Source: a virus (lineage: Duplodnaviria; Heunggongvirae; Uroviricota; Caudoviricetes). Taken from it: a DNA stretch of 44,088 nucleotides. The notes beneath the pieces were generated by a model. It was not told the origin of the DNA and made no database searches. It saw nothing but the letters and a program-made list of their open reading frames with translations. The position numbers and the translations under genes were made by a program. Shown here piece by piece: positions 3,343 through 22,342 of the stretch; within the stretch, counting starts at the first letter, position 1; every line of letters begins with the position of its first letter. Location: the IMG/VR virus record IMGVR_UViG_2541047912_000004, positions 1 to 44,088 of that record. One strand, given 5' to 3'.

Positions 3343-5589
3343 TTATGGATTATTAACCTTCCATCTTTTATCATAGTAATGCAAATATCCCTGAGACGTT
3401 AGTGTCATATGGACAATCGCTTGGGATATTTGCGCGTTCTGAAAATTAACTCTAATAAATACTTGAGTGCCAATTGTTATTTTTGATACAGATATCCCGT
3501 CAAGAGTCTTGTCTCCTTGTATTTTATTAACCCAAACACCTGACGAAGACAAGGTTGCCTGATCCTTTCCGCTTATACTAAATATAATTTTACCTCCTGT
3601 TGCCAGTGAGGTGTTTACTCCATTTTGAGATATTGGAATTATTGTAATTTCACCAGCAATGAAAACACCATTTTTGTATTTAGATTCCTCACCTTGTTCA
3701 CAAATTAAAATATCAATACATCTACCCCATGGTACTAGGATTGTTGCATTTTCAGTTTTTACTTGTGGATATACAGCTGAAACACCTGCAGATTCGAAAT
3801 TTTTTGCTGATAAAACAACTCCGTCAGATCCATTTCTAAATCCCATTCCTGTATGATCACCGTATGTCCTTCCATGAGAGATGAATCCTCTTACATACTC
3901 TTCGGATACTACGCTACCAGTGGTTTCCTTCTGAAAGATAAATGTTTCACCAAAAGAAAAACCACGACATTGGTATTGGCTCTGATAATTTTCTGAGTTC
4001 TTAAAAAAGGAAATGCCTTTATATGCTGTTACATAGCCAGATCTAAATTGAACGGAAACAGGGGTTGTTTGTTCATCTGGAGGTAACTCCACAAAATGTG
4101 TAACATTTTGGCTGTTTGATTCCTGTAACCATACAGAAACACCATCTATAATCATGGTTGAAAATCTACTGTTTATTTCTAACTCAGAAAAATCAAGAAC
4201 ATGATCACCTGTAACACCCTCAACTCCAAACCCATCAATACTTAAAGACCTGAACTGATAGAATTTATGCGGTAACTCACAACCATCAGCTGCAATATTC
4301 ATTGCGCTAGTGTACATTAATGGGTAAGGACTTATAATTGGTTCATATGTTTCTCTATCTATTGCAGCCCCCCAAAGATACCCAACATTACAATGTCTTG
4401 CCCAGTTGGAAGAGAATGTAGTAGATGTGCCAGCCAAACCGAAACCATAGATACAATCATATGCTTGGTTGTTTGTAACATTACTGACAAAGCATGATAA
4501 GGGAAGTGCAAATTTATAATGTAGAAATATGTTATTTTTAATATCATATTCACTACCCCCGCCAAAGGTTTGTGTTTGACCAGAAATGACCAATGGGCTA
4601 CCTGAATATTCATCGTCAGCGTTGCGAAAACACATATTCTTTACTTTAAGATTGTGCCCCCAACTTCCCATAACAAAACCACCACTTCCTGATGTATAAA
4701 CAATACTTTTTTGTGGATTAATCCCATATAGATTTAGACTAATCCCTTCCCATCTAAACTGGCTAATGTCAATTTGAGTGTTACCAATATATATAGGCTG
4801 GTCTATGAAAACAGGAAGTTTAGTTAGATAAGCTTTATTAAGTGCTAATCCATCATTTGTTACACCTGTTAAATCAACGCCACCCATGCTTGGCGCTCTA
4901 GGATACCCTGTGGCCTGAATAGTACTCCAGTCAATATATGGAGCATCCATCCACGCTCCAAACATACGTGGTGTTACGTACCCCTTACCTTGAAGATCAC
5001 GTTTCCAGCGTTTACCACCCGCAGTGACAATGACCATGCCGTTATCATCTGCAGAAGTAGAATCTGTGAAATCGGCCACAAACAGACCACCACCAGTATC
5101 ACCTGATACTGTCGGCTTCATGCCTGTAGTGTGGAAGTCGACGAAAATCTTTTGCTGATCTCGCTCAGGCTCAATTGTCCTTAACATTGCTATATCAGGG
5201 CATGTCCCGATGTATTTAAGACCGTCTTCCCCTGATAGAGATACTTTAAGCTGATCAGGATCATACTTCAGCACATTTGGGAATTTGAACTGCTGTGCAC
5301 CATATGCATCATAAACAGCCATAGAATGGCCTTGCACAGTTACGAACTTGGCAATCTGTCCGTTATATACCGGATATCCAGCATCGTTAATGATGATTGG
5401 TTGCGAAACAGGAACGTGAGAACCGTCTTCATTCTCCACATAAACCTGAATCTGGTTTTCAGGATTTACCGGGTCAGTGTCAATTTTACCGATATAAATT
5501 TTGCCATTGGCTACGGCTTTAAAAGAACGAGCCATAGTGAAGAGTTGCGAAGGCATGCTTACCACAACATTTGCGGTGATATCTGACAT
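3343..5589 (-). CDS. Tailspike protein (P22 gp9-like N-terminal head-binding domain, divergent C-terminal receptor-binding domain)
   Basis: The N-terminus [43 protein letters not shown] closely matches the P22 tailspike head-binding domain. Start set at the internal ATG 5587..5589 (GGAG upstream); the ORF track extends 16 codons further. Confidence 0.85.
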
Positions 5590-18005: not shown

Positions 18006-19421
18006 TCAACCTACACCACAAGGAATTGAGTAACTGGAATAGTCTGGTTGCGCAACCGACTCCGGGCAATGCATACACATCATCAACGCATCAGCCAGGT
18101 TAGGAGATGGAATACCGAGCTTCTGCTTCATTTCGACCTTAGTCATTAGCTCCAGCTTCCCGTTGTTATTGAATTTGCGCTGAATCTGCGTCAGTTCTGC
18201 AAACAGTTTCTCCAGCATCTTCTCGCCTATCGCTTCTTTGTCGAAGCTCAGCATGTCGTCGGGGTCTGCATACTCACCGTGGACAACCGCCCGATATGTC
18301 AGATACAGCCTGTCAGCCAGCGCGTAATAGAATTGCGCTCGCTTATTGCGGAATACATCGCCAATAGTGCGAACGTTGTCACCCTGTACGACTTCATCAG
18401 CCCATGCTCCGGCCTGATACGGAGCATCTTCATCGAATGGCGATTCGCTGCCCTTGAACATCGTGGCGGTGATTTTCTTACCGGAGAACGCTTCCGTTGT
18501 CTGTCTGCGTAGCCCTGCACCGACACCATCGCCATCCCACAGGTAATGGTCAGCGCCGTCTTCAATCGCCAGCGAAGTAGCCCAGTCAGCACCCTCGTTG
18601 ATGTCCATCAGCAGACCTTCGGCAATGCGCTTAACTACCGAACCGTGACGCGATGCATAACCTTTAGCATCTGGCCCTGTATCTGATGGGTCATGCGCAG
18701 AGACAACAGCGCCTTTCGCTTTCCATCCGAGTTTCTTGTGCGCATCGGTTGCGGCTTCAAGCCATTCACGTTTGATGATTGCCATATCACTTGCGCTTAC
18801 TGGCTCACCAAGCCAGATGTGACGATACAGTGTCGGGTTTCTGCGTTTACACTCTTCCATCTCCAGACGGAGAACTTCAGGAAAGTGCGGGTTGTCGGTG
18901 TAGTTCACCGTCAGCAGACAAATATCATCGGGAGGGTTTACTACGAATCGCTGATAGGTATCGTCGAGGATGTTTTTCGGGTTGAAGCTCACCCATATTT
19001 CGGAAAATGGCTTGCGGATGGTTGGTATCAGGATATCCCATGATTCCTTCGTTACCGCTTCCGCTTCCTCCACCCAGCAGATATCAATGCCTTCGAGCGA
19101 TTTAATCTTCGTCGGGTTGTTTTTGATGCCGTAGAACATGAACTCAGCATTCGTCCCGAGATGACGAATCATGGAACGCTGAATTTCAAACTCAGCCGTA
19201 TACCCTTCACGCTCTATGGTGTCTTCAAGCAGCCGGATTACCGAATCGCTGATACTGTTTTGCAGTTCACGAGCGCAGAGAATACGCACTGGCTGCCGAC
19301 GCGCCGCTTCAACAAGCAGTCTCGCAATTGCCCATGATTTACCGCTACCTCGACCGCCTTTGGCGACTTTGTAGCGATGCGCCTCAATGAACGGTTCAAA
19401 GATAGGATTAATCGAGGTCAT
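18006..19421 (-). CDS. Terminase large subunit
   Basis: Walker A motif GGRGSGKSWAIARLL near the N-terminus; 471 aa; resembles the Sf6 gp2-type TerL. Confidence 0.9.
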   Translation of the reverse strand: MTSINPIFEPFIEAHRYKVAKGGRGSGKSWAIARLLVEAARRQPVRILCARELQNSISDSVIRLLEDTIEREGYTAEFEIQRSMIRHLGTNAEFMFYGIKNNPTKIKSLEGIDICWVEEAEAVTKESWDILIPTIRKPFSEIWVSFNPKNILDDTYQRFVVNPPDDICLLTVNYTDNPHFPEVLRLEMEECKRRNPTLYRHIWLGEPVSASDMAIIKREWLEAATDAHKKLGWKAKGAVVSAHDPSDTGPDAKGYASRHGSVVKRIAEGLLMDINEGADWATSLAIEDGADHYLWDGDGVGAGLRRQTTEAFSGKKITATMFKGSESPFDEDAPYQAGAWADEVVQGDNVRTIGDVFRNKRAQFYYALADRLYLTYRAVVHGEYADPDDMLSFDKEAIGEKMLEKLFAELTQIQRKFNNNGKLELMTKVEMKQKLGIPSPNLADALMMCMHCPESVAQPDYSSYSIPCGVG

Positions 19422-19858
19422 TTTCCGAATAGAGTACTCATCGGTGATGTTTCAATCTGGATTGCGCCGCCGTCTTTGCCTGTTAGCTCGTGATCAACCT
19501 TGTCGCGCCATTTATCCTTCTGTCGGTTCTTAAGCCAGAAGATGGCAGCTGTTGTATCAGGCGGGTAATACTTCTCAAGAGGAGTTTCGACAATTCTGTT
19601 TTCAATAACACGAATATCGATGTCTGGAGCCACGAAGCCCATAGCGCGTTGATAAAGACGGTCACTAACTTCTGCATCAGCGACGGCCTTACCCTTTTTT
19701 ATGGACTCCGAAAACTCAGGATAATCAAGCTTCCACTTGTTAATAGTTGACTCACTGACTTCGAAGAAATCAGCAAGCTCTGCATCGGTGTAGCCCAGCA
19801 AGCACAGTTTGCGTGCCTGTTCGGCATACGCCTCTTGATACTTTGTTGGGCGCGCCAT
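19418..19858 (-). CDS. Terminase small subunit (Sf6 gp1-like)
   Basis: 146 aa with an N-terminal helix-turn-helix-like region and a C-terminus GKDGGAIQIETSPMSTLFGK that matches my memory of Sf6 gp1. Overlaps the TerL start. Confidence 0.75.
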   Translation of the reverse strand: MARPTKYQEAYAEQARKLCLLGYTDAELADFFEVSESTINKWKLDYPEFSESIKKGKAVADAEVSDRLYQRAMGFVAPDIDIRVIENRIVETPLEKYYPPDTTAAIFWLKNRQKDKWRDKVDHELTGKDGGAIQIETSPMSTLFGK

Positions 19859-19860
19859 GT

Positions 19861-20103
19861 TTATGCTCCGGTGGTGAACAGGTCTAACGCTTCCTTCGAT
19901 TTACGCACCGCTTCGATAGTGCGGGTCGTGATATCTGAATTAGCGCCGCCTGACTGGAAGTGAATTTTGAATAGCTCAAGCTTCAGTTCGTCAGTGCCAA
20001 TGAACTGAAATGCTTCCTCTGCGGCTGCGTTCTGGTTCATGACCAGCTTGTAAATCTCTAACTGGAATTTCTGTTCTTCAGTCATGGGAATAATCTCTGC
20101 CAT
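19861..20103 (-). CDS. Small hypothetical protein upstream of the terminase genes (P22 ORF80-like position)
   Basis: 80-aa ORF with a GGAG Shine-Dalgarno, immediately upstream of terS. Confidence 0.4.
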   Translation of the reverse strand: MAEIIPMTEEQKFQLEIYKLVMNQNAAAEEAFQFIGTDELKLELFKIHFQSGGANSDITTRTIEAVRKSKEALDLFTTGA

Positions 20104-20430
20104 TGTTGGCTCCGTTTATCCGTTAAAAGGGATATCAGTTAAGTTATCCCGTGTAGGGTATAAGCCATTGTCGAGACCACTCATTGAATGGTCTCTGCAA
20201 TAACCGATGTCTTTCCATCAGTCCGCCACCACAAAGAATCTTTTTTGCCATAAGGCAGGAGGTTCATCTTTCAGTGGCTGCCAGTGTTATTCCCCCACTT
20301 ACTGGCTTGGGTTGTATCGCTGTACTGCCGTTAATTAGTGACCAGAAATTAACTCCGGTTTCATTATCAAGCCCACCAGTAGATGGGCTTTGTAATGAAG
20401 AGTTGTTATGAAAATTGCTCTAAACAAGCA

Positions 20431-20919
20431 TTAATAGCCATCAGAAGTAATCGCTACAGATTTCAATCCCTCAATGTCATCCTTGGACAGGGCGAACCAT
20501 TCACCGTGCTTTCTCTTTGCGGCAAATTTGCGATGAAGCATGTTTTCAGTTTCTCTTCCACCAGGGATCAGGCACTCAAGCTTCAAGCAGTCTGGTCCAG
20601 AGTTGCCAAGCGATTTGATGCGTTGTGGAATGTTGGATGAATACCCAATTTTGGTTAGCCCAGTTTTCTTCGATGACAAAACGTATACCTGAGGAGGTTC
20701 TTTTCTCTGGTCTTCCATTACACGTCTCATTGTTGCCATAAGTCCGCCGTGCATCAGCATTTCAACAAAGAACGCTGACCGAACACCTGACGACTTAAGC
20801 ATGCCAGAAAATTCACTTGCCAATTCCATTAACTCTGCGATGTTTTCAGGAACTTTTTGGCAGTTATCTTCCTTGTATAAGGAAATCATTCTTTGAAGCT
20901 TTTCTTCTAATTGGTTCAT
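20431..20919 (-). CDS. T5orf172 (GIY-YIG-like) domain protein; moron between the lysis and packaging genes
   Basis: The C-terminal half (VYVLSSKKTGLTKIGYSSNIPQRIKSL..HRKFAAKRKHGEWFALSKDD) fits the T5orf172/MUG113 domain pattern. Start set at the ATG 20917..20919 with an AAGG Shine-Dalgarno; the ORF track begins at a GTG 12 codons upstream. Preceded by an intrinsic terminator. Confidence 0.6.
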   Translation of the reverse strand: MNQLEEKLQRMISLYKEDNCQKVPENIAELMELASEFSGMLKSSGVRSAFFVEMLMHGGLMATMRRVMEDQRKEPPQVYVLSSKKTGLTKIGYSSNIPQRIKSLGNSGPDCLKLECLIPGGRETENMLHRKFAAKRKHGEWFALSKDDIEGLKSVAITSDGY

Positions 20920-21068
20920 AGCGTCTTTACCTTTTAGAAAGTGAGCCTGTCTCACAGAAAAGCCGCCCCGAGATGGTCGCCACCATATACGGCAGTTCTC
21001 AGGCTCAACTTTCTGAAAGGCTCGGGTGATGTAATATGCGCGTGAGATGCGCTGTGAAATTCAGATGT

Positions 21069-21093
21069 AAAAAAAGCCCCGCATCGCGAGGCT
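21069..21093 (-). terminator. Rho-independent terminator downstream of Rz
   Basis: GC-rich imperfect hairpin (gagcctcgcgatgcggggc on the minus strand) followed by a run of 7 U. Confidence 0.55.
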
Positions 21094-21124
21094 CATTAAA
21101 TGGACTTTGTGATTTGCAAAAAAA

Positions 21125-21562
21125 TTATTTCAGGCACTGAGTCCTGATGTACTCCTGCAGGTAGTTAACCTGCGCGGTTATCTTGTCGATTCCACTTCGG
21201 AGACGGTAATAATTGAGTTCAGCATCTGCTGTAAGTCTTGGGCTTTCTCCATCGCCCATGCTGCTGGCTCCGGTCGTTGACTTTGCACAGGTGGCGGCGA
21301 CTTGCAGGCGCTTACGCCCAGCAGAAACATCAGCACGAAGGCTTTCGATAGTAGCGTTAGCATCAGCAAGCTCCTTTGTGTATCTGGCGTCGAGTTCTGC
21401 TACATCACGTTGACGCTTCTGCATATCAGCGATGATGGATGTGGCTTTGTCGCGCTGGTCTTTATAGGCGATGGCGTTATCACGGTAATGATTAACAGCC
21501 CATGACAGGCAGACGATGATGCAGATAACCAGAGCGGAAATAATCGCGGTTAACCTGCTCAT
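21125..21562 (-). CDS. Rz: Spanin inner-membrane subunit Rz
   Basis: Near-identical N-terminus to lambda Rz ([32 protein letters not shown]); overlaps the R stop. Confidence 0.9.
21178..21369 (-). CDS. Rz1: Spanin outer-membrane lipoprotein subunit Rz1 (embedded in Rz in the +1 frame)
   Basis: 63-aa ORF wholly inside Rz with a lipobox (LLGVSAC) and a proline-rich stretch ([13 protein letters not shown]), as in lambda Rz1. Confidence 0.8.
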
Positions 21563-22035
21563 ACCTCAATCTCTCTGACCGTTCCGCCTGCTTCTTTGAA
21601 TTTTGCAATCAGGTTGTCAGCCTTATGCTCGAACTGCCCATAACCAGCCCCCGGCAGTGAAGCCCAGATGTTGCTGCAACGGTCGATAGCCTGACGGATA
21701 TCACCGCGATCAATCATCGGCAAAGCGCCACGTTCCTTAATCTGCTGCAATGCCACAGCGTCCTGGCTTTTCGGAGAGAAATCTTTCAGGCCAAGCTGCT
21801 TACGATAGGCATCCCACCAACGGGAAAGAAGCTGATAGCGACCGGCTGCTGTTGATTTGAGTTTTGGGTTTAGCGTGACAAGTTTGCGAGGGTGATCGGA
21901 GTAATCAGTGAATAGCTCTCCGCCAACAATGACGTCATAACCATGATTTCTGGTTTTCTGACGTCCGTTATCAGTTCCCTCTGACCACGCCAGCATATCG
22001 AGGAACGCCTTACGTTGATTATTGATTTCCACCAT
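21559..22035 (-). CDS. R: Endolysin, lambda R-type lytic transglycosylase
   Basis: 158 aa; the sequence ([62 protein letters not shown]..) is essentially lambda R. Confidence 0.95.
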
Positions 22036-22342
22036 CTTCTACTCCGGCTTTTTTAGCAGCGAAGCGTTTGATAAGCGAACCAATCGAGTCAGTACCGATG
22101 TAGCCGATAAACACGCTCGTTATATAAGCGAGGTTGCTACTTAGTCCGGCGAAGTCGAGAAGGTCACGAATGAACCAGGCGATAATGGCGCACATCGTTG
22201 CGTCGATTACTGTTTTTGTAAACGCACCGCCATTATATCTGCCGCGAAGGTACGCCATTGCAAACGCAAGTATTGCCCCGATGCCTTGTTCCTTTGCCGC
22301 GAGAATGGCGGCTAACAGGTCATGTTTTTCTGGCATCTTCAT
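22019..22342 (-). CDS. S: Holin, lambda S-type (dual-start MKM motif)
   Basis: 107 aa; [64 protein letters not shown].. matches lambda S107/S105. Confidence 0.9.

Follow-up and report, generated by a model that had tools for sequence, protein, structure and literature searches.

In the IMG/VR virus record IMGVR_UViG_2541047912_000004, a stretch of 44,088 nucleotides (nt) analysed at its full length (the window), a small open reading frame (ORF) with a T5orf172 domain occupies the slot between the last lysis gene, Rz, and the packaging genes of a P22-like prophage that is near CUS-3, Sf6 and HK620. This gene is real, conserved and under purifying selection, and the explanation that we favour, tentatively and with somewhat less than even confidence, is that it is a late-expressed, translationally gated and mobile nuclease of the homing type within the GIY-YIG superfamily. 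The gene itself belongs to a known family and has already been annotated, as a "GIY-YIG nuclease family protein" in RefSeq, as gp64 of HK106 (YP_007151734.1) and as phrog_4284; it appears to be a small-architecture member and a putative nuclease, and alone it is ordinary. The more interesting and newer part, and the one worth keeping, is its context, in which a fixed terminator and a covarying leader are followed by unrelated DNA-binding or nuclease genes that replace one another, as in a socket, at the start codon.

The slot ORF lies on the minus strand, as do all its neighbours, at 20431-20919, and encodes 162 amino acids (aa) plus the stop codon from an ATG; an earlier reading made from the letters alone (the sequence-only reading) had given it 163 aa. 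The product is identical to RefSeq WP_016245257.1. We considered an in-frame GTG at 20955 as the start, which would give 174 aa, and rejected it, as the stretch from GTG to ATG is leader common to unrelated ORFs; because this stretch is out of frame or stopped in related, epsilon34-type leaders, the start was placed at the ATG at 20919.

A Pfam scan of the 174-aa version of the protein, with the curated gathering scores as cut-offs, identified MUG113 (PF13455; E=7.4e-15, 55.7 bits against a cut-off of 22.3) and T5orf172 (PF10544; E=3.3e-10, 40.8 bits against a cut-off of 20), with both matches spanning approximately residues 78-151 of the 162-aa protein. The same families are also precomputed for its homologues. 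The sequence-only reading had assigned the C-terminal half to T5orf172, to be abandoned if no such profile were hit, and this assignment holds, both profiles scoring above their cut-offs. Canonical GIY-YIG (PF01541) stayed below its threshold (12.5 bits versus 22.6, E=0.18), so that the putative membership of the slot protein in the GIY-YIG superfamily rests on the T5orf172 and MUG113 families, which we take to be in the same Pfam clan as GIY-YIG. The whole protein falls into phrog_4284, a PHROGs family of unknown function, and had no match in NCBIfam. As also anticipated from the letters, which had left the N-terminal ~80 aa unassigned, neither Pfam nor NCBIfam gave a family for the N-terminal ~75 aa. 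An exhaustive profile search retrieved 38,241 relatives of the C-terminal domain and, among the best 150 matches, with close relatives and truncated copies excluded, about a dozen other proteins of ~160-220 aa covered most of the N-terminal part too.

The role of T5orf172 domains, described as poorly defined in the sequence-only reading, has since become clearer. T5orf172 is a subfamily of GIY-YIG (PMC8263062; PMC10448857), and DNA cleavage by Odn (Gp88) of phage ICP1 depends on a glutamate equivalent to E75 of I-TevI (PMC8263062). For Barth, Dunham and Seed, the T5orf172 genes of phages, in which several lineages are enriched, are homing endonuclease genes located at boundaries of genetic exchange, with a terminase gene in 35% of their neighbourhoods, and CapR and Odn are regarded there as domesticated derivatives of such endonucleases (PMC10448857).

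The residues expected of a nuclease are conserved. In alignments of 23-36 homologues, down to 24% identity, Y79, K90-I91-G92, R100, E125, H129 and W141-F142 are invariant, and the second Tyr of the GIY-YIG motif is a Lys, as usual in T5orf172. By comparison with Y6, Y17, R27 and E75 of I-TevI, Y79 would be the Tyr of GIY, K90-I91-G92 the strand of YIG, and R100 and E125 the catalytic pair of Arg and Glu. The stretch E123-T-E125-N would then align with the I-TevI helix E73-R-E75-N, a striking local match, and we assume that E125, and not E140, is the equivalent of the catalytic E75. A profile search against sequences from the PDB gave weak matches to T4 endonuclease II and BH0048 (E ~0.4-0.6), which are motif-correct and not significant alone. 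AlphaFold, run on a 36-sequence alignment, produced a model with a predicted local distance difference test score (pLDDT) of 88.4, in which helices 3-20, 23-43 and 49-71 form an antiparallel three-helix bundle (aa 1-75; 20695-20919, minus strand) followed by a beta-beta-alpha-beta-alpha core that corresponds to T5orf172/MUG113 (aa ~76-155; 20455-20694, minus strand). Structure searches with the whole model returned no GIY-YIG entry among the matches listed.

Homologues span 30-100% identity and, given also the low substitution ratios that follow, chance is very far from explaining the ORF. The ratio of nonsynonymous to synonymous substitutions (dN/dS) was 0.07-0.15 against homologues of 76-83% identity and similarly low in each half, indicating that both domains are functional; these values do away with the possibility, raised in the sequence-only reading, that the ORF might not be conserved as a coding sequence. 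Searching with the N-terminal domain alone, with a tool of limited sensitivity, we found only truncated copies of the same gene, and therefore no sign of a domain captured from another protein. Truncated copies of 70-111 aa occur in several assemblies (P0010, P0012, P0015 and P0025), so that the gene does decay at times.

Comparison of related phages indicated that the slot is variable, as suspected in the sequence-only reading, and that it is filled by exchange of whole genes. Relatives carry there Rha, Rha with Gp49, KilA-N, a GIY-YIG gene of 30% identity, HNH or genes annotated as anti-CRISPR. For instance, the allele of CUS-3 combines Phage_pRha with ORF11CD3 and that of another type of relative KilA-N with ORF11CD3, while others have Phage_pRha alone or together with a Gp49-family gene. 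Homology between alleles runs on the 5' side from Rz through the terminator and the leader and ends at ATGAA, window position 20915, and resumes on the 3' side at 20398 for the Rha and KilA-N alleles or at 20341 for epsilon34 and CUS-3. The replaced segment thus opens precisely with the start codon and closes 32-89 nt past the stop codon, within a non-coding 3' trailer of 327 nt (20104-20430, minus strand) that is 94-99% identical in relatives with other slot genes. A gene of the Gp49/Sf6 gene-66 family is inserted in this trailer, at ~20205, in some relatives. HK106 lacks hkbM, the gene that follows the trailer in the window, and yet keeps 82 nt of its 5' end beside the trailer, indicating that the HK106 cassette came from a P22-like phage. 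T5orf172 was reportedly already part of a network of shuffled domains, the Bro network, in its original description by Iyer, Koonin and Aravind in 2002. The alternative slot proteins are also "Bro network" proteins (PMC10111431).

What the alleles share upstream of the start codon is a conserved non-coding 5' leader (20920-21073, minus strand), delimited by allele homology and by a covariance model. It appears in 153 phage records, among them upstream of phi80 rha and HK620 hkbK and in many Shiga toxin (Stx) phages, and also in phages of Salmonella, Klebsiella, Enterobacter and Pantoea. A variable-gap DNA pattern for the leader gave mostly chance matches, which were filtered by BLAST. One leader is found ahead of T5orf172, Rha, KilA-N and second GIY-YIG ORFs and, in a distant phage, the leader is detectable by DNA homology and the T5orf172 ORF is not.

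The leader is also structured. That of the window folds with a free energy of -66 kcal/mol (z=-4.2), and RNAalifold analysis of a MAFFT alignment of 14 distinct leaders predicted a small hairpin and a long one of ~98 columns, which corresponds in the window to a hairpin of ~91 nt (20930-21020, minus strand). The consensus contains 30 pairs, with 97.1% of cells paired, and 15 of these pairs show changes on both sides, compared to 4.3±1.4 in shuffled alignments (0 of 500 reached this value) and to 2-6 in slid-partner controls. For the covariation we rely on this independent alignment (A6). When the most divergent leaders were added in a second MAFFT alignment (A7), the arms were misaligned and RNAalifold gave a poor structure; the covariance-model alignment (A8), which took its place, has been fitted to the model and also contains hits on the reverse strand. 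A near-invariant U-G pair and other G-U pairs favour an RNA of the gene-sense strand. In the basal helix, where two of the five pairs covary, CCUUU (21020-21016) pairs with AAAGG (20934-20930), which holds the Shine-Dalgarno sequence (SD) AAGG (20930-20933, minus strand), located 10 nt before the ATG. The sequence-only reading was hence right in giving the gene its own SD and ATG, although the SD is predicted to be base-paired within a conserved hairpin.

In the computed ensembles, the probability that the SD 5-mer is unpaired was 0.01 for the window and 0.00-0.05 for seven of nine leaders located at the slot or ahead of T5orf172 homologues, rising to 0.11 in epsilon34 and 0.40 in the copy found in a tail operon (see below). 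The values were higher for three divergent copies ahead of other genes and similarly low for two ordinary late genes, and it is the covariation, not these probabilities, that is evidence for the structure. The hairpin might also contain an upstream ORF (uORF), a possibility suggested by 19 codons read from the sequence at 20927-20986 on the minus strand (ATG at 20986, TAA at 20929-20927), which end just past the SD. Many leader variants have a start codon at the same place, which lacks any ATG or GTG in L056-type leaders; the frame and the stop are not uniformly kept, and in CUS-3/L007-type leaders the candidate uORF continues in frame into the main ORF. The annotated Rha ORF of CUS-3 begins at the uORF ATG and phi80 rha is annotated from an in-frame GTG of the leader, so that annotations of slot genes are inconsistent.

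With 168 bits at 20905-21073, minus strand, the covariance model found a single copy of the leader on that strand of the window. It also retrieved extra copies, with 58.8-67 bits, ahead of phi80 gp49 (L018, 4075-4220), of an unassigned 141-aa ORF (L022, 8507-8637) and of an HNH_3+AP2 gene situated between Q and the holin gene of a Salmonella prophage (L140, 1378-1531). In Rfam, nothing in the window reached the gathering score, and the region 19800-21300 had no match even at E<=1. By eye, in the leader, we found no convincing LexA box or integration host factor (IHF) site, for which no formal scan was run. To our knowledge, a structured leader with gene replacement exact to the start codon has not been described, the 1995 paper on rha of phi80 and P22 being outside this comparison.

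The leader follows an intrinsic terminator located directly after Rz, noted also in the sequence-only reading, which consists of a hairpin of nine pairs, six of them G-C, and a T-run (GAGCCTCGCGATGCGGGGCTT; 21094-21074, minus strand); HK106, epsilon34 and phi80 have a rho-independent terminator annotated at the corresponding site. Between the slot stop codon and DUF2560 there is no terminator-like site on the minus strand, and the only nearby terminator is the one that precedes the gene. A consensus scan of the minus strand over 19800-21700 detected no sigma-70-like promoter, although a weak or non-sigma-70 promoter could escape it; likewise, the annotations of HK106, phi80 and epsilon34 show no promoter at the corresponding position, and the alignments of leader variants contain no conserved promoter-like element. 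An AT-rich patch, located after the terminator and before the hairpin, contains weak -10-like hexamers. The slot gene is co-oriented with the Q-dependent late operon and, in lambda, Q-modified polymerase reads through terminators. Co-orientation, the upstream terminator and an SD held in a conserved hairpin together predict low expression during the lytic phase and not in the lysogen, the opposite of what characterizes a lysogenic-conversion gene.

In a census of 5426 complete genomes of E. coli, the slot ORF was present in 81, always with at least 99% identity (79 full length and 2 truncated), and the flanks of the slot in 2720, about half of the total; this sporadic presence at one locus, together with insertion at several intergenic sites, fits the pattern expected of a free-standing homing gene. 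The same protein (98.9-100% identity; WP_016245257.1) occurs in at least five genomic backgrounds: P22-like prophages whose large terminase is of the PBSX type, as in the window; others of P22 type that have another terminase and holin; DLP12/lambda-like prophages, some of them intact and some heavily decayed; the HK97-like siphovirus HK106, whose gp64 is 98.9% identical; and phage Chlobot, with a protein 100% identical. Between the window and HK106, identity is 488 of 489 nt in the ORF and ~81% in both the leader and Rz. Homologues of 30% identity occupy the same slot in epsilon34, g341c and NM-3, whereas those of 76-83% identity, and likewise one of 49%, come after unrelated lysis cassettes. 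In a Klebsiella variicola prophage (L017, 5001-6187), the end of the lysis cassette is followed by two nuclease genes in tandem, the 76% homologue and a gene for a DNA/RNA non-specific endonuclease (Endonuclease_NS), whose start it overlaps.

Other homologues lie elsewhere. One of 51% identity separates the lambda-like genes V (tail tube) and G (tail chaperone) (L143, 3790-4540), with a terminator and a leader upstream and a terminator downstream, and is a true insertion, that is, a complete portable cassette inside an essential operon; another, of 38% identity, is in another structural region. At the DNA level, the homologues of 51% and 49% identity resemble each other only over the ORF, and their leaders are of different type. 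In decayed DLP12-like remnants, the slot ORF is intact, with 100% identity, beside insertion sequence (IS) elements. In two of these remnants (L009 and L011, ~3654-3681), homology to the window ends at 21084, within the Rz terminator, where the cassette borders on an IS3/IS150 element; this element replaces the lysis genes, and yet the T5orf172 ORF is 100% intact; one of these copies is on a 42.7-kb "plasmid", pF138-4.

These results can be assembled into the following proposal, in which the ORF would specify a small two-domain nuclease, with a three-helix bundle and a T5orf172 core with intact catalytic residues. The gene would not be an independent transcription unit and would instead be part of the Q-antiterminated late operon, being transcribed only upon read-through by antiterminated polymerase, i.e., during lytic growth, and translation would remain low until the leader hairpin is opened or processed. 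Terminator, leader and ORF would constitute a portable cassette, with the same leader serving Rha, KilA-N, HNH-AP2 or T5orf172 ORFs, and relatives at other late-operon junctions fit this behaviour. As a free-standing, selfish or competitive endonuclease of the homing type, the product would cut DNA of related phages or prophages during co-infection or induction, and cutting would promote its own inheritance and recombination at the boundary between the lysis and packaging modules.

Several observations weigh against this homing-type nuclease. Most described T5orf172 homing endonucleases have N-terminal zinc-finger or RepA_N domains (PMC10448857), whereas Pfam detected no zinc finger, helix-turn-helix, AP2 or RepA_N in the slot protein, and the N-terminal bundle is a generic, slightly acidic fold, which may serve in dimerisation or in binding DNA, without a recognisable sequence-specific DNA-binding domain. 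Furthermore, the common variant P0002 (114 member sequences, from Salmonella and E. coli) has GGWF instead of the near-invariant GEWF (E140G), plus D110Y. Where the slot lacks the T5orf172 gene it is not empty and carries another one; alleles do not differ over the last ~55 nt of the leader, so that the 5' junction shows no obvious self-immunity polymorphism; and ordinary homologous recombination through the conserved leader and trailer would explain the exchange without any nuclease drive. Nor is the near-clonality of the ORF special. We considered its near-identity across backgrounds as specific evidence of homing drive and rejected it, as two control alleles of the slot are as uniform: Rha, in 248 E. 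coli genomes, 224 of them at >=99% identity, and the second GIY-YIG allele, in 58 genomes, 57 of them at >=99%. Clonality is therefore a property of the slot and not of the T5orf172 gene. Finally, the intact ORF in decayed remnants could mean retention at the level of the host, although recent decay explains it equally well.

A broader reading, which we consider doubtful, shifts the emphasis from the gene to the RNA. The terminator and the ~150-nt covarying, SD-pairing leader would be an undescribed portable cis-regulatory RNA, an "expression socket", that serves toxic nuclease and Bro-network genes (T5orf172, HNH-AP2, Rha and KilA-N) in lambdoid late operons, with translation gated by processing, by translation of the uORF or by a factor in trans. 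Nuclease alleles would drive the swap of alleles by cutting at or near the leader-ORF junction of their rivals, and homing would then operate between alternative genes and not into an empty site.

We rank the homing-type nuclease first, followed by a conflict nuclease, a regulator and a moron or defence gene, in this order. The first of these alternatives, clearly less probable than the homing-type nuclease and yet the strongest of its rivals, is a domesticated conflict nuclease that benefits the phage, acting late in the lytic cycle to cut satellites (similar to phage-inducible chromosomal islands, PICIs, or to P4), co-resident prophages or superinfecting phages. Its N-terminal bundle would direct it to the target through oligomerisation or a protein partner, like the borrowed RepA_N domain in ICP1 Odn. 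The strong purifying selection on both domains and the retention of the catalytic residues agree with this proposal, for which Odn and Odn-like coliphage nucleases are a precedent (PMC8263062; PMC10448857). In relatives, moreover, the slot holds conflict-type genes, annotated as anti-CRISPR in phage Huey and as HNH in Dewey, the Klebsiella homologue overlaps another nuclease gene, and a tight translational gating would suit a toxic effector. However, we cannot name a target, we detected no homologue of the N-terminal domain in other architectures and therefore no sign of its capture from a target element, only 81 of the 5426 complete E. coli genomes carry the gene, and its match in PADLOC-DB 2.0 is weak and at the level of the domain: there was no significant match to any defence system and the only candidate was PDC-S57 (8e-6, 23.6 bits), over the nuclease core.

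It seems improbable, and more so than a conflict nuclease, that the slot protein is a DNA-binding regulator equivalent to Rha or KilA-N, with a T5orf172 core that binds DNA without cutting it and that modulates late replication or transcription; the annotation of phi80 Rha mentions inhibition of DNA synthesis in IHF- hosts. In favour of a regulator, the widespread E140G change suggests that not every conserved acidic residue is needed; nevertheless, the presumed equivalent of the catalytic Glu is E125 and not E140. CapR, from the PLE satellite, is reportedly a transcriptional repressor of the capsid operon. It is a relative of T5orf172 homing endonucleases that acts in the conflict between satellite and phage without being a homing nuclease (PMC10448857), and the slot gene shares position, terminator and leader with phi80 rha, HK620 hkbK (KilA-N) and other Bro-network proteins (PMC10111431). 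On the other hand, the counterparts of the catalytic Tyr, Arg and Glu do not vary even among homologues of 24-30% identity, which would be unexpected if catalysis were dispensable.

The sequence-only reading had regarded the gene as a lysogen-benefit moron in the place that holds bor or lom. A moron is an extra gene, inserted between two that adjoin in related phages; it has its own promoter, usually its own terminator, and is expressed from the prophage (the definition of Hendrix and Juhala). The positional analogy is correct for bor, in lambda as in DLP12, because in DLP12-like prophages the slot gene is exactly where K-12 has borD; it does not extend to lom, which we take to be in the tail region of lambda. 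The upstream terminator would insulate a moron from read-through, the AT-rich patch might contribute a promoter, the intact ORF that persists with 100% identity beside IS elements, in prophage remnants otherwise heavily decayed, would suit a gene of use to the host, and the tail-operon homologue of 51% identity has a terminator on either side, like an inserted unit. Between V and G, this homologue is a true insertion; at the slot, relatives carry alternative genes rather than nothing. Still, we found no own promoter upstream and no own terminator downstream. A classical moron or defence gene, transcribed in the lysogen from its own promoter and guarding the host against other phages, is hence the least credible of the four explanations, given a gene strand devoid of promoter-like sites and of promoter-like elements conserved across leader variants, an orientation shared with the late operon, an SD sequestered in a covarying hairpin, the leader of phi80 rha, a gene annotated with a lytic-growth phenotype, and no significant match to known defence systems.

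The surroundings of the slot are those of a late operon, with the gene located, as first read, between Rz and the packaging genes. Upstream, all on the minus strand, are the genes for the holin (22019-22342), the lysozyme (21559-22035) and the i-spanin Rz (21125-21562; Pfam Phage_lysis 1.8e-36, phrog_13 3.1e-72), the last lysis gene, with Rz1 embedded in it (21178-21369). Downstream, also on the minus strand, are the late gene DUF2560/hkbM (19861-20103), the small terminase TerS (19418-19858; phrog_309 2.1e-68) and the PBSX-type large terminase TerL (18006-19421), with the portal gene then downstream. The window is 99% identical over 19800-20341 to CUS-3, which annotates DUF2560/hkbM and terminase genes there. 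On the plus strand, the trailer contains a terminator-like hairpin (20241-20262, TTTTTTGCCATAAGGCAGGAGG) and is overlapped by two small ORFs (20184-20411 and 20207-20338), neither of which shows signs of being a gene.

Among known systems, the nearest is gp64 of HK106 (WP_016245257.1), the same protein at the same position directly past Rz and the terminator, although HK106 is an HK97-like siphovirus with a Rha-type leader, in which the gene is followed by an HNH endonuclease and cos, where the window has DUF2560 and P22-type terminase genes. Likewise, gp68 of epsilon34 and gp64 of g341c share the two-domain architecture, the slot, the terminator and the leader, but show only 30% identity and constitute a separate allele, the one found in 58 complete E. 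coli genomes. I-TevI, the Seg proteins of T4, Hpy188I and Eco29kI have the same signature GIY...YIG...R...E (Y79, K90-I91-G92, R100 and E125); unlike in these enzymes, the second Tyr of the motif is a Lys in the slot protein and PF01541 is below threshold, and I-TevI has the nuclease and DNA-binding domains in the opposite order. In size, and in joining a helical N-terminal part to a GIY-YIG core, the slot protein presumably resembles Hpy188I and Eco29kI, which are small dimeric restriction enzymes. The T5orf172 proteins of ICP1, including Odn, and CapR have a C-terminal T5orf172 domain with conserved catalytic Arg and Glu behind an N-terminal targeting domain (PMC10448857, PMC8263062), and those of ICP1 also lie in terminase neighbourhoods, at boundaries of genetic exchange. 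However, they are larger and contain a zinc finger (CapR/DUF723/DUF4397) or RepA_N, where the slot protein has only a 75-aa helical bundle; moreover, ICP1 is a lytic vibriophage, in contrast to the temperate lambdoid late operons considered here, and no structured leader has been described for its proteins.

With regard to the slot itself, rha of phi80 and P22 and hkbK of HK620 share the position, the terminator, the structured leader and an ORF that starts at the same ATGAA, but encode unrelated proteins (Phage_pRha, KilA-N and ORF11CD3). Rha inhibits phage growth in IHF- hosts, as also stated in the phi80 annotation. The bor gene of lambda and borD of DLP12 occupy the same slot between Rz and the packaging genes; bor, however, is on the opposite strand and encodes a lipoprotein expressed in the lysogen from its own promoter, whereas the slot gene has the orientation of the late operon and no promoter was detected for it. 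The comparison bears on what the slot genes of the "Bro network" do, and on whether nucleases of the homing type shape module boundaries in temperate phages, as proposed for lytic phages. If the leader gates translation, this would account for the presence in phages of Rha, KilA-N and nuclease-type genes that may be toxic, and here the closest documented analogy is the IsrK-orf45-anrP leader of Gifsy-1. In that prophage, the mRNA made by terminator read-through encodes a toxic regulator of antirepressor type and is translationally inactive, and a short upstream ORF and alternative structures in the anrP leader control access of the ribosome (PMC4825925). IsrK has its own promoter and acts in trans, whereas neither a promoter nor an RNA acting in trans is known for the slot gene, and the two leaders are not homologous, with no relation by sequence or Rfam.

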